Assembly (NCBI GenBank): GCA_011944185.1
Contig: GCA_011944185.1_3921.1
Strand: one strand, 5' to 3'
Source: a phage
DNA: 40,116 bases
Below are positions 260 to 1,109 of the stretch, piece after piece (positions within the stretch are counted from its first letter, which is position 1; every line of letters starts with the position of its first letter). A program made the translations under genes and the position numbers. The notes under the pieces were generated by a model, which was given only the letters and a program-made list of their open reading frames with translations, ran no database searches and was not told where the DNA came from.

Positions 260-350
260 GTTTTGACAGAAGACCAATTACAGCAAACTTAATCTTATTC
301 ATCTGAAGGTAAATCGGACAAAGAAGAGATTTGGTCTGGTCATTAAGAAT

Positions 351-427
351 TGCGGGTATAGAGAAAGGGCGTCTCACATGTCTCATTAGCATGGTATCGG
401 CAGGTTCGACTCCTGCACCCGCCTCCA
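351..427 (+). tRNA. tRNA-Met-like (anticodon CAT), non-canonical
   Basis: T-arm GCAGG-TTCGACT-CCTGC; anticodon stem catgt/gcatg with loop ctcatta; 1:72 T-C mismatch and 3 nt between acceptor and D-stem. Confidence 0.5.
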
Positions 428-510
428 AATTTACAGAAGACCGTTTACAGCAATATTTATTAAATTTTTAGCGGAAAAATTGAAAGATACGGTCTGGTAA
501 TACTAAACAT

Positions 511-587
511 GGTTAGGAAGCACATAAGGTATGTGCGGTCGCCTGTTAAGCGAATGGCACAGGGTTCGAATCCCTGACTAACCGCCA
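511..587 (+). tRNA. tRNA-Asn (anticodon GTT)
   Basis: acceptor ggttagg/actaacc; anticodon loop ctgttaa; T-arm CAGGG-TTCGAAT-CCCTG; CCA encoded. Confidence 0.8.
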
Positions 588-656
588 AATTTAGGAGAGA
601 AGCGATTGCTCACCGATTTGTAAGGTGCAAGTCCTTAGCCTGAATAGAAATCAAAT

Positions 657-744
657 GTGTCGTTATCCCGTAGATGGTAGCGGTGGGGACTGTAAATCCC
701 TTGTCATTGAGACTCGGTAGGTTCGACTCCTACACGGCACACCA
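657..744 (+). tRNA. tRNA-Tyr (anticodon GTA), long variable arm
   Basis: 88 nt; anticodon stem gggga/tccct with loop ctgtaaa; T-arm GTAGG-TTCGACT-CCTAC; CCA encoded. Confidence 0.8.
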
Positions 745-750
745 AATAAA

Positions 751-828
751 GGTTATGTAGTTTAATCTGGTTAAAATACTCCCCTGTCACGGGAGATGAT
801 GAGGGTTCAAATCCCTTCATAACCGCCA
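751..828 (+). tRNA. tRNA-Asp (anticodon GTC)
   Basis: acceptor ggttatg/cataacc; anticodon stem ctccc/gggag with loop ctgtcac; T-loop TTCAAAT; CCA encoded. Confidence 0.85.
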
Positions 829-1032
829 ATTTTGAGAGGGCTATTTAGCCCCTCCCTTAAAGAGTTCTTACGAGTATTCTTTAAAGGAGCAGAAGACCAA
901 ATACAGCAAGCATGTATGAAATTTCAAACCAATTCAATTTTGAAAATTTAAAACTTGGTCTGGCTCAACAAATTTACAGAAGACCGTTTACAGCAAAACT
1001 TAAACAATCTATTTCTCCGGTAAAGAAAAGGC

Positions 1033-1085
1033 GAGGGTTCGATTCCTTCACTCGGCAGATGTCGAGTTGGTGTAATGGTAGCACT
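1033..1085 (+). pseudogene. scrambled tRNA-like fragments: T-arm plus acceptor 3' strand directly abutting acceptor 5' strand plus D-arm
   Basis: GAGGG-TTCGATT-CCTTC then actcggc (1050-1056), 4-nt loop, gtcgagt (1061-1067) forming a perfect 7-bp hairpin, then D-arm-like gtgtaatggtagcac; no anticodon arm can be assembled. Confidence 0.3.
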
Positions 1086-1109
1086 TAAGATGATAAACAA
1101 CGGTCTGGT

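Follow-up and report, generated by a model that had tools for sequence, protein, structure and literature searches.

The 40,116-nt stretch of phage DNA analyzed here (contig GCA_011944185.1_3921.1 of assembly GCA_011944185.1; hereafter, the window) is the tRNA region of a Felix O1-like phage (Felixounavirus): its first 6 kb match about 350 phage records at 80–98% identity, and Felixounavirus accounts for most of these records, with Felix O1, wV8 and numerous phages of E. coli and Salmonella among them. ARAGORN recognizes 25 tRNA genes, all on the + strand, between positions 98 and 5672. Most junctions between these genes span only 1–8 nt, and some of the first tRNAs are separated by unusually long gaps. 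Such gaps are occupied by four small structured RNA genes, which we call modules 1 to 4, and which are probably Y-RNA-like partners of a Ro60-like protein whose gene lies just upstream of the tRNA array in relatives of this phage. The relevant part of the array is laid out as follows, where R1 denotes a covariance model of the module family, described below, whose E-values come from a shortened calibration.

182–259, + strand: tRNA-Glu (ARAGORN)
264–342, + strand: module 1, candidate Y-like RNA of hairpin type, 79 nt (fold, structural scan, R1 51.9 bits, E 2e-8)
351–427, + strand: tRNA-Met (ARAGORN)
431–500, + strand: module 2, candidate Y-like RNA of hairpin type, 70 nt (fold, structural scan, R1 55.5 bits, E 3e-9)
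511–587, + strand: tRNA-Asn (ARAGORN)
887–966, + strand: module 3, candidate Y-like RNA of hairpin type, 80 nt (fold, structural scan, R1 43.3 bits, E 2e-6)
974–1111, + strand: module 4, candidate YrlA-like RNA, 138 nt (fold, structural scan, R1 42 bits, E 5e-6)

The modules contain two recurring motifs that had been picked out in an earlier, sequence-only reading of this DNA. An exact search places the first of these, the 21-nt motif RCAGAAGACC-N3-TACAGCAA, at precisely the four sites that had been listed for it (266–286, 433–453, 889–909 and 976–996), all on the + strand, where 0.08 copies are expected and none of 100 shuffled sequences reaches four; no additional copy exists in the 40 kb, even with up to three mismatches allowed. 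The second motif, GGTCTGG, follows every copy of the first at a distance of 45–110 nt (333–339, 491–497, 957–963 and 1102–1108), such that its recurrence is borne out, with two of the starting positions (given as 334 and 958) corrected by one nucleotide. Taken by itself, GGTCTGG is no more frequent than chance would have it (11 matches with two mismatches vs. 9.9 expected), and we rejected it as an independent signal; it is significant only because it pairs with the 21-nt motif. The proposed pairing of AGACC with GGTCT across the spacer is real, as both folding and the structural scan attest, and it extends into the N3 positions, whose bases pair with those ahead of GGTCT and covary with them (AGACCAA/TTGGTCT, AGACCGT/ACGGTCT, AGACCGTT/AACGGTCT). 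Each pair of motifs marks the 5′ and 3′ ends, base-paired with each other, of one of four genes for small structured RNAs.

RNA folding gives all four modules a common closing structure: a 4-bp outer helix, an internal loop with AGA on its 5′ side and G on its 3′ side, an inner helix of 7–8 bp (AGACCNN/NNGGUCU), and then UWACAGCAA. Module 1 reads UGAC / AGA / AGACCAA / UUACAGCAA / 44-nt interior / UUGGUCU / G / GUCA; module 2, UUAC / AGA / AGACCGU / UUACAGCAA / 35-nt interior / ACGGUCU / G / GUAA; and module 3, GAGC / AGA / AGACCAA / AUACAGCAA / 45-nt interior / UUGGUCU / G / GCUC. In module 4, the same elements (UUAC / AGA / AGACCGUU / UACAGCAA ... AACGGUCU / G / GUAA) surround a tRNA-like domain. 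The outer helix thus covaries within the window itself (UGAC/GUCA, UUAC/GUAA, GAGC/GCUC), and modules from across the Ounavirinae display eight versions of it (these three plus UUGC/GCAA, GGAGC/GUUCC, GGGC/GCUC, UGC/GCA and AAGC/GCUU), as well as G-U pairs that can be used solely in the RNA of the + strand. It is the interiors that vary, from a simple hairpin in modules 1–3 to a circularly permuted tRNA mimic in module 4. With respect to the tRNAs, module 1 begins 4 nt past tRNA-Glu and ends 8 nt ahead of tRNA-Met, and module 2 begins 3 nt past tRNA-Met and ends 10 nt ahead of tRNA-Asn; the distances to tRNA ends given earlier are roughly right for these two. Module 3 precedes module 4 and not a tRNA, and module 4 precedes a 145-nt hairpin.

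The possibility that the spacers encode proteins was rejected: they contain only short open reading frames (36–85 amino acids, mostly with TTG starts), and the annotation of Felix O1 has no coding sequence there. Nor do the modules match an Rfam family: two scans, one of them at E ≤ 10 on 255–1260, returned only tRNAs above threshold and no ribozyme, riboswitch or other family. The only Rfam matches overlapping the modules, to the Dictyostelium Class I RNA (about 20 bits, E about 0.8), were judged to be due to chance.

Immediately upstream of tRNA-Pro, Felix O1 carries ORF42, a gene annotated as an ‘RNA-binding protein’, whose stop codon falls about 70 nt before the position corresponding to window position 1 and about 330 nt before module 1, with the intervening sequence nearly identical to that of the window. 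Its product carries the Pfam domains DUF2828 and DUF7788. An AlphaFold (AF2) model built from 32 homologs (predicted local distance difference test score, pLDDT, 87; predicted template modeling score, pTM, 0.87) predicts a protein folded like Ro60/Rsr, with a HEAT-repeat ring as well as a domain of von Willebrand factor A type. When this model was compared with the Protein Data Bank (PDB) by Foldseek, the top 12 matches were all to Ro60/Rsr over the full length (E 7e-8 to 2e-6; template modeling score, TM, 0.51–0.65), and included Xenopus Ro60, Deinococcus Rsr, human Ro60 complexes and the Ro60 of Thermus phage phiLo (9l5y, 9kop); isolated von Willebrand factor A domains appeared only from E ≥ 0.007. 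Homologs in mycobacteriophages are annotated as ‘Ro-like RNA binding protein’.

Such DUF2828-type Ro60-like genes occur in at least 710 sequenced phages, whose recorded hosts include Escherichia, Salmonella, Vibrio, Listeria, Staphylococcus, Campylobacter, Enterococcus, Bacillus, Mycobacterium and others, and among thousands of metagenomic proteins. Two studies bear on such proteins. In Bas63 (Felixounavirus), the Ro60-like gp130, encoded upstream of tRNAs, is reported to counter the Ppl defence, and those who described it surmised that “some tRNA genes are possibly Y RNAs”. In Listeria phage CKA15, an Rsr-like protein was found in virions, and unannotated regions near tRNA genes are transcribed at very high levels, which the authors suggest may represent Y RNAs. 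Neither study identifies the RNAs; the modules, which lie in the spacers and are not annotated tRNAs, are concrete candidates for them.

Evidence that the modules and the gene belong together comes from phages that are only distantly related. Yersinia phage P778, whose protein is 53% identical, carries three modules within its tRNA array that keep this architecture and differ in sequence: one reads CACA-GGACUGU-UUACAGCAA...ACAGUCC-A-GCA, and another has a T arm. We also gathered 80 metagenomic viral loci in which a relative of the protein is encoded; in 75 of these, it is only about 40% identical. A loose structural scan of the loci yielded 151 candidates on the strand of the gene vs. 38 on the opposite strand, with a recurring signature of A-AGR-NNNN...UWCAGCAA...NNNN-YCU-G. 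From 30 small modules, we then built the covariance model R1, whose structure consists of the 7-bp inner helix only, the outer helix having been left out because no single register fits all of the distant phages, and we searched both strands of the window and of 77 loci (914 kb).

Of the 86 R1 matches at E ≤ 1, 85 are on the strand of the gene (binomial 1e-24). There are 48 matches at E ≤ 0.01, and 35 of them fall no more than 500 nt from the gene, either upstream or downstream, a zone that makes up 8.8% of the sequence (binomial 7e-27); none of the 48 lies inside the Ro-like gene. The modules typically sit –3 to –240 nt or +16 to +500 nt from it. Matches were present in 33 of the 77 loci at E ≤ 0.01 and in 52 at E ≤ 1. 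In the alignment of all matches, 97.6% of inner-helix positions are paired, as against 64% after shuffling columns and at most 48% when the partner strand is slid, and all seven pairs of the helix show double changes. What is invariant or nearly so is the A-G at the start of the helix, the U-W-C-A-G-C-A-A that follows, and the C-U-G at the end. The closing motif of these RNAs comprises a short outer helix, a loop with A-N-A on the 5′ side and G/A on the 3′ side, a 7–8 bp helix A/G-G-R...Y-C-U/C, and a single-stranded U-W-CAGCAA.

Within the window, R1 matches exactly the four modules, at 42–55 bits, and nothing else when positions 1–6000 are searched with filters off. The ‘degenerate copies’ that had been proposed at 3182–3217 thereby drop out, since no match arises in 3167–3262 up to E = 10. 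The spacer 3167–3262 has a hairpin of its own (z-score –3.3) and several AGACC/GGTC words, and stands outside the module family.

In named phages searched with filters off, tandem modules again lie directly beside the gene, and 30 of the 32 matches are on its strand. Aeromonas phage 4_4572 has six modules, the last of which ends 10 nt ahead of the start codon; Listeria phage LP-124 has two to three upstream of the gene; Staphylococcus phage SEP9 has three just downstream; and modules also lie beside the gene in Bacillus phage FADO, Campylobacter phage PC14 and Enterococcus phage iF6. Matches in Mycobacterium phage BigCheese are weak. In LP-124 (locus L085), a gene for an RtcB-like RNA ligase (6315–7526) shares the strand of the DUF2828 Ro-like gene and lies 1.3 kb downstream from it, a layout that recalls the rsr-yrlBA-rtcBA operon of Salmonella. 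The tRNAs are not a constant partner of the family: 14 of the 30 module-bearing loci examined have no tRNA gene within about 13 kb, and in other loci the modules are wedged between tRNAs as they are in the window (e.g., L010, 8453–8531, between tRNA-Gln and tRNA-Asp). That the same RNA family occurs beside Ro60-like genes where there is no tRNA at all speaks against the earlier suggestion that the motifs are processing signals tied to tRNA ends.

Module 4 differs from the others in what its closing stem encloses. The sequence-only reading covered neither this domain nor the Ro60-like gene just beyond the window. The elements of the domain are these:

999–1089, + strand: circularly permuted tRNA-like domain (a four-way junction in the minimum free energy fold)
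999–1003 / 1085–1089, + strand: anticodon-stem-like helix, CUUAA/UUAAG, joining the domain to the closing stem
1012–1028, + strand: V hairpin
1033–1049, + strand: T arm, GAGGG-UUCGAUU-CCUUC
1050–1067, + strand: acceptor-like 7-bp stem closed by an AGAU loop, ACUCGGC-AGAU-GUCGAGU
1070–1084, + strand: D arm, GUGU-AAUGGUA-GCAC

The ortholog in Citrobacter phage Moogle retains every one of these helices with changed sequences, its acceptor stem reading ACCCUUC-GCCAAACA-GAAGGGU. This is not a canonical tRNA gene, in that ARAGORN is silent at 974–1111 and the Rfam tRNA model gives only a partial match of 18.8 bits at 1000–1050, where the threshold is 29. When the permutation is undone by swapping the closing stem for a 7-nt loop and re-joining the halves, ARAGORN calls the Moogle domain cleanly as a class II-like tRNA; the domain from the window is called in one of three constructs, at a relaxed threshold only and with its D arm distorted. 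In distant loci, too, long family members possess a T arm, a closed acceptor stem of 7–8 bp and a D arm, and the order V, T arm, closed acceptor stem, D arm could be parsed in the window, in Moogle and in four distant loci. Each Felix O1-like genome has one such YrlA-type tRNA mimic.

In four of the six parsed permuted domains, the 3′ strand of the acceptor stem is followed by N-CCA. Several relatives (L004, 8462–8483; L070, 7860–7882 and 10478–10612; L041, 7523–7641) have a discriminator base and CCA at this place, with a spacer of 3–5 nt ahead of the 5′ strand. The copy in the window has AGAU where these relatives carry N-CCA. The placement of N-CCA suggests cleavage by RNase P within the loop, which would leave a tRNA-like CCA 3′ end. 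Cleavage by RNase P in the acceptor loop has been shown for the YrlA of M. smegmatis, and since the acceptor stem of module 4 is 7 bp, as in that RNA, such cleavage is plausible here. The sequence of 3′ half and then 5′ half in module 4 also led us to consider that a permuted tRNA is freed and circularized by flanking self-cleaving ribozymes, as in the permuted tRNA genes of algae. We set this idea aside, since no ribozyme model gave a match and YrlA has exactly this layout, its acceptor stem being simply closed by a loop.

YrlA is a bacterial Y RNA with a tRNA-like domain, known from Salmonella, Mycobacterium and more than 250 species, in which a protein-binding stem is followed by V, the T arm, a closed acceptor stem and the D arm (Chen et al. 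2014, PMC4201824; Wang et al. 2018, bioRxiv 10.1101/312249). Module 4 resembles it in that its ends pair into a putative protein-binding stem, its interior has this same series of elements, an anticodon-stem-like helix joins the tRNA-like domain to the closing stem, and it is encoded near a Ro60-type gene on the same strand. It differs in that the GNCGAAN0-1G of YrlA is absent and the modules carry A-N-A / A-G-R...Y-C-U / G plus UWCAGCAA; that the partner is a DUF2828/DUF7788 protein, Ro60-like by fold only; and that module 4 sits within a tRNA operon, with several of its relatives encoding N-CCA in the acceptor loop. Modules 1–3 relate to module 4 much as YrlB and Yrn2 (PMC4201824) do to their neighbors, being short RNAs without a full tRNA domain that lie beside a tRNA-like Y RNA and share its protein-binding motif (a putative one in the modules), and in D. 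radiodurans, Yrn2, tRNA-Asp and Yrn1 form one precursor (PMC4201824). Unlike YrlB and Yrn2, the modules have another sequence motif, and each genome here has three of them, with as many as six in Aeromonas phage 4_4572.

A phage precedent is provided by Thermus phage phiLo (PMC12135203), which encodes a Ro60 homolog and, beside the gene, two small stem-bulge-stem RNAs, Yrl1 and Yrl2; their binding has been shown, and the resulting ribonucleoprotein interacts with the polynucleotide phosphorylase (PNPase) of the host. As in our case, a phage protein of Ro60 type has adjoining small RNAs, and the phiLo structures rank high in the fold matches to the Felix O1 protein; unlike the modules, the phiLo RNAs were picked by a CGAA motif, lie upstream of the gene and lack a tRNA-like domain. 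Known Y RNAs have their genes on the strand of Ro60 and no more than 4 kb away from it, and their Ro-binding motifs are GGUCCGA in metazoa and Deinococcus, GNCGAAN0-1G in YrlA and YrlB, and CGAA in the Yrl RNAs of phiLo. With the metazoan Y RNAs (Rfam RF00019), the modules have in common that they are small, that their paired ends would carry the Ro60 site and that a variable loop would be the effector; the metazoan RNAs differ in being transcripts of RNA polymerase III with a bulged GGUCCGA helix, and there is no similarity in sequence or by Rfam.

Small stable RNAs are also present in the tRNA cluster of phage T4, where species 1 and 2 (RNA C and D) are non-tRNAs that are co-transcribed with tRNAs and freed by tRNA processing enzymes. 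We know of no Ro-like partner for these T4 RNAs.

Transcription of the modules in the window would likely begin at the following site, which was located by a consensus scan and is also kept in Felix O1 and Moogle:

42–71, + strand: sigma-70-like promoter TTGACA-18-TAAAGT, TG extended, upstream of tRNA-Pro

After it, the first strong promoter-like site comes at 1507–1535, and a scan of the + strand of 1–2000 found no terminator-like site (a GC-rich hairpin plus a U tract), so that the modules are not intrinsic terminators. In Felix O1 (L002, about 6535–6600), directly past the stop codon of the Ro-like gene and just upstream of the counterpart of window position 1, is another sigma-70-like promoter, TTGACA-17-TAATAT; because it is conserved in Moogle, a tandem pair of promoters appears to stand ahead of the array of tRNAs and modules.

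The modules constitute an RNA family that is conserved, strand-specific and covarying, in which the closing motif is constant and the interior varies, and which is genomically coupled to a gene of Ro60 fold. Because this family sits beside the gene for a Ro60-like RNA-binding protein, we consider it probable that the four modules are Y-RNA-like partners of that protein, released by tRNA processing. All four have paired ends, a conserved internal loop and a variable interior, as expected of Y RNAs, and they would be encoded within a few kilobases of a Ro60-like gene on the same strand, with the caveats that this gene is outside the window and is a homolog at the level of fold. The earlier proposal that the two motifs belong together was correct, and among the roles assigned to them, that of a binding site comes closest, albeit for an RNA-binding protein on RNA and not for a regulator on DNA. 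Under the model that we favor, the RNAs would be co-transcribed with the tRNAs from the promoter at 42–71 and released by the enzymes that mature the neighboring tRNAs, i.e., RNase P at the 5′ end of the downstream tRNA and 3′-end nucleases at the upstream one. The common terminal motif, as the putative binding site of the Ro60-like protein, would lead to particles of the Ro–Y RNA type, in which the variable interior could act as an effector module that tethers the ring protein to, or gates it toward, host factors, by analogy with Rsr-YrlA-PNPase and with phiLo Ro60-Yrl-PNPase. Such particles may contribute to the anti-defence role reported for this protein (the countering of Ppl in Bas63), or to RNA surveillance and repair during infection.

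Several observations weigh against this model. The canonical Ro-binding sequences (GGUCCGA, GNCGAAN0-1G and CGAA) are absent from the modules, whose 5′ strand reads (U/G)ACAGAAGACC and whose family consensus is W-A-G-R...U-W-CAGCAA; and the argument for binding is one of genomic linkage. The protein itself lacks the Pfam TROVE domain, and neither phmmer nor a 32-sequence profile found a Ro60 among PDB sequences, such that a link at the sequence level had to be abandoned and only the fold search succeeded. As to its presence in this genome, the gene would lie outside the window, and we infer it from relatives that are 93–98% identical. Only 33 of the 77 loci have a match at E ≤ 0.01, which implies that the RNA is missing beside some Ro-like genes or that variants were missed. 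Moreover, the seed of R1 was chosen with a scanner that requires pairing, which renders the covariation of the seed partly circular, so that it is the strand, the position and the non-seed results that carry the weight; and since the coding strands of phages are A-rich, as is R1, composition could add to the strand bias. Given the absence of the canonical Ro-binding motif, a partner recognized by fold only and the lack of an Rfam match, we file the modules as candidate RNAs of the Y-RNA kind and not as members of YrlA or YrlB.

The same features might be accounted for in other ways, each of which we judge less likely than the Y-RNA-like model. If the modules were cis-acting processing or spacer elements of the tRNA operon, providing defined cleavage contexts for RNase III, E or P and having no function of their own, one would understand why they lie between tRNAs, 3–10 nt from the tRNA ends, and why they are similarly wedged in other phages (L010, L083, L044, L057). 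The modules that adjoin a Ro-like gene in the 14 tRNA-free loci are not what such elements predict; most tRNA junctions of the window manage without one; neither the conserved single-stranded CAGCAA nor a permuted tRNA domain is required of a cleavage hairpin; and substrates of RNase III are far longer than helices of 4 and 7 bp. We regard this explanation as quite unlikely. Equally unlikely, in our estimation, is that the modules are cis-regulatory elements of the Ro-like gene or operon, serving as autoregulatory leader or trailer sites or as decoys for the protein. Many distant loci do have modules, often in tandem, 3–240 nt ahead of the start of the gene, where an operator in the 5′ untranslated region would be; but in Felix O1-like phages they lie downstream, behind promoters of their own and interleaved with tRNAs, they are also downstream in Staphylococcus phage SEP9 and many metagenomic loci, and neither up to six tandem copies with differing interiors nor a tRNA-like domain would be expected of an operator.

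A small but real chance attaches to the view that these are stable small RNAs acting independently of the Ro60-like protein, either as base-pairing regulators through the invariant CAGCAA and an A-rich loop or, in module 4, as a tRNA decoy that diverts the host's tRNA-targeting defence nucleases or enzymes that bind tRNA, with the linkage to the gene reflecting a shared neighborhood of ‘RNA warfare’. In its favor, conservation is highest in a single-stranded hexamer, the tRNA mimic possesses a D-loop GG and a T-loop UUCGAUU, as a tRNA elbow requires, N-CCA is encoded past the acceptor 3′ strand in several relatives, and the Ro-like gene often adjoins tRNA arrays, and in LP-124 an RtcB ligase gene. 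Yet tight, strand-specific adjacency to a single gene family in widely differing phage lineages typifies an RNA–protein partnership, and a constant closing-stem motif around a varying interior is the logic of Y RNAs, which separate a protein-binding from an effector module. By far the least probable is that the modules are remnants of a repeated mini-element, as the sequence-only reading had also entertained, here taken to be selfish and akin to miniature inverted-repeat transposable elements, or target sites of homing endonucleases, without function at the RNA level. There are four dispersed copies whose conserved termini are partly inverted repeats, and the tRNA region of this phage group has HNH endonuclease genes. 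Against this, all copies have the same orientation; compensatory changes keep both helices, including G-U pairs that would be A-C mismatches on the other DNA strand; across the family the helix sequence changes completely with pairing kept; the family lies beside the same gene in phages of different bacterial phyla, with Gram-negative and Gram-positive hosts; and no target-site duplication or presence/absence polymorphism was noticed among the Felix O1-like relatives examined.

Directly 3′ of module 4 is one further structured element:

1110–1253, + strand: long-stemmed structured RNA, 145 nt (minimum free energy –49.2 kcal/mol, z-score –6.2)

Its closing stem measures about 25 bp, and Moogle retains this stem by way of four compensatory changes; the element also holds a mini module-like hairpin at about 1209–1235 (CUAC-AGAC-CUUAAGCAA-GUCU-GG-GUAG; in Moogle, CUAC-AAACC-CUUUAGCAA-GGUUU-GC-GUAG). 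We rejected this mini-hairpin as a member of the family, as R1 with filters off gives no match. The whole element could be an additional non-coding RNA or an RNase III site, and its membership in the family is uncertain.

Elsewhere in the array, two long inter-tRNA gaps fold better than shuffled sequences: 829–884, within a stretch (829–975, z-score –3.3) that forms two hairpins ahead of module 3, and 588–656 (z-score –2.2). The strong sigma-70-like promoter at 1507–1535, which has 11 of 12 matches, precedes a structured stretch that transfer-messenger RNA (tmRNA) models match weakly (1433–1617 and 1549–1738, E 0.002–0.005), beyond which lies an odd tRNA-like gene (1740–1818; Rfam tRNA 31.7 bits, no ARAGORN call). 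Another tRNA-like sequence, 2323–2397, has a CCA end and likewise no ARAGORN call, its sole model match being a weak one to tRNA-Sec (23 bits). An open reading frame annotated from relatives as an HNH endonuclease is present at 1836–2183, and Felix O1 has further HNH genes inserted at other tRNA junctions, which makes the tRNA region a hotspot of homing endonuclease insertion.

Our literature search, whose coverage was incomplete such that an earlier description is possible, found no publication defining these RNAs. It is a fair possibility, which we offer tentatively, that they belong to an undescribed and widespread phage ribonucleoprotein that combines a DUF2828-type ring protein with arrays of ‘CAGCAA’ Y-like RNAs, in which one protein-binding stem with differing interiors would supply interchangeable adaptors toward host RNAs and enzymes as a mechanism of anti-defence. 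Permuted tRNA mimics that expose a CCA end after cleavage by RNase P may be among these adaptors.

DUF2828-type Ro60-like genes are common in phages, where one such protein is reported to counter a host defence and another is packaged in virions, and Y RNAs have so far only been guessed to lie nearby. In that the candidate RNAs now have coordinates, a consensus, a covariance model and an architecture, the Y-RNA hypothesis becomes directly testable. The modules extend the theme of Y RNAs and tRNA mimics from bacterial stress operons to lytic phages, and they indicate that the ‘spacers’ of phage tRNA arrays can themselves be genes.

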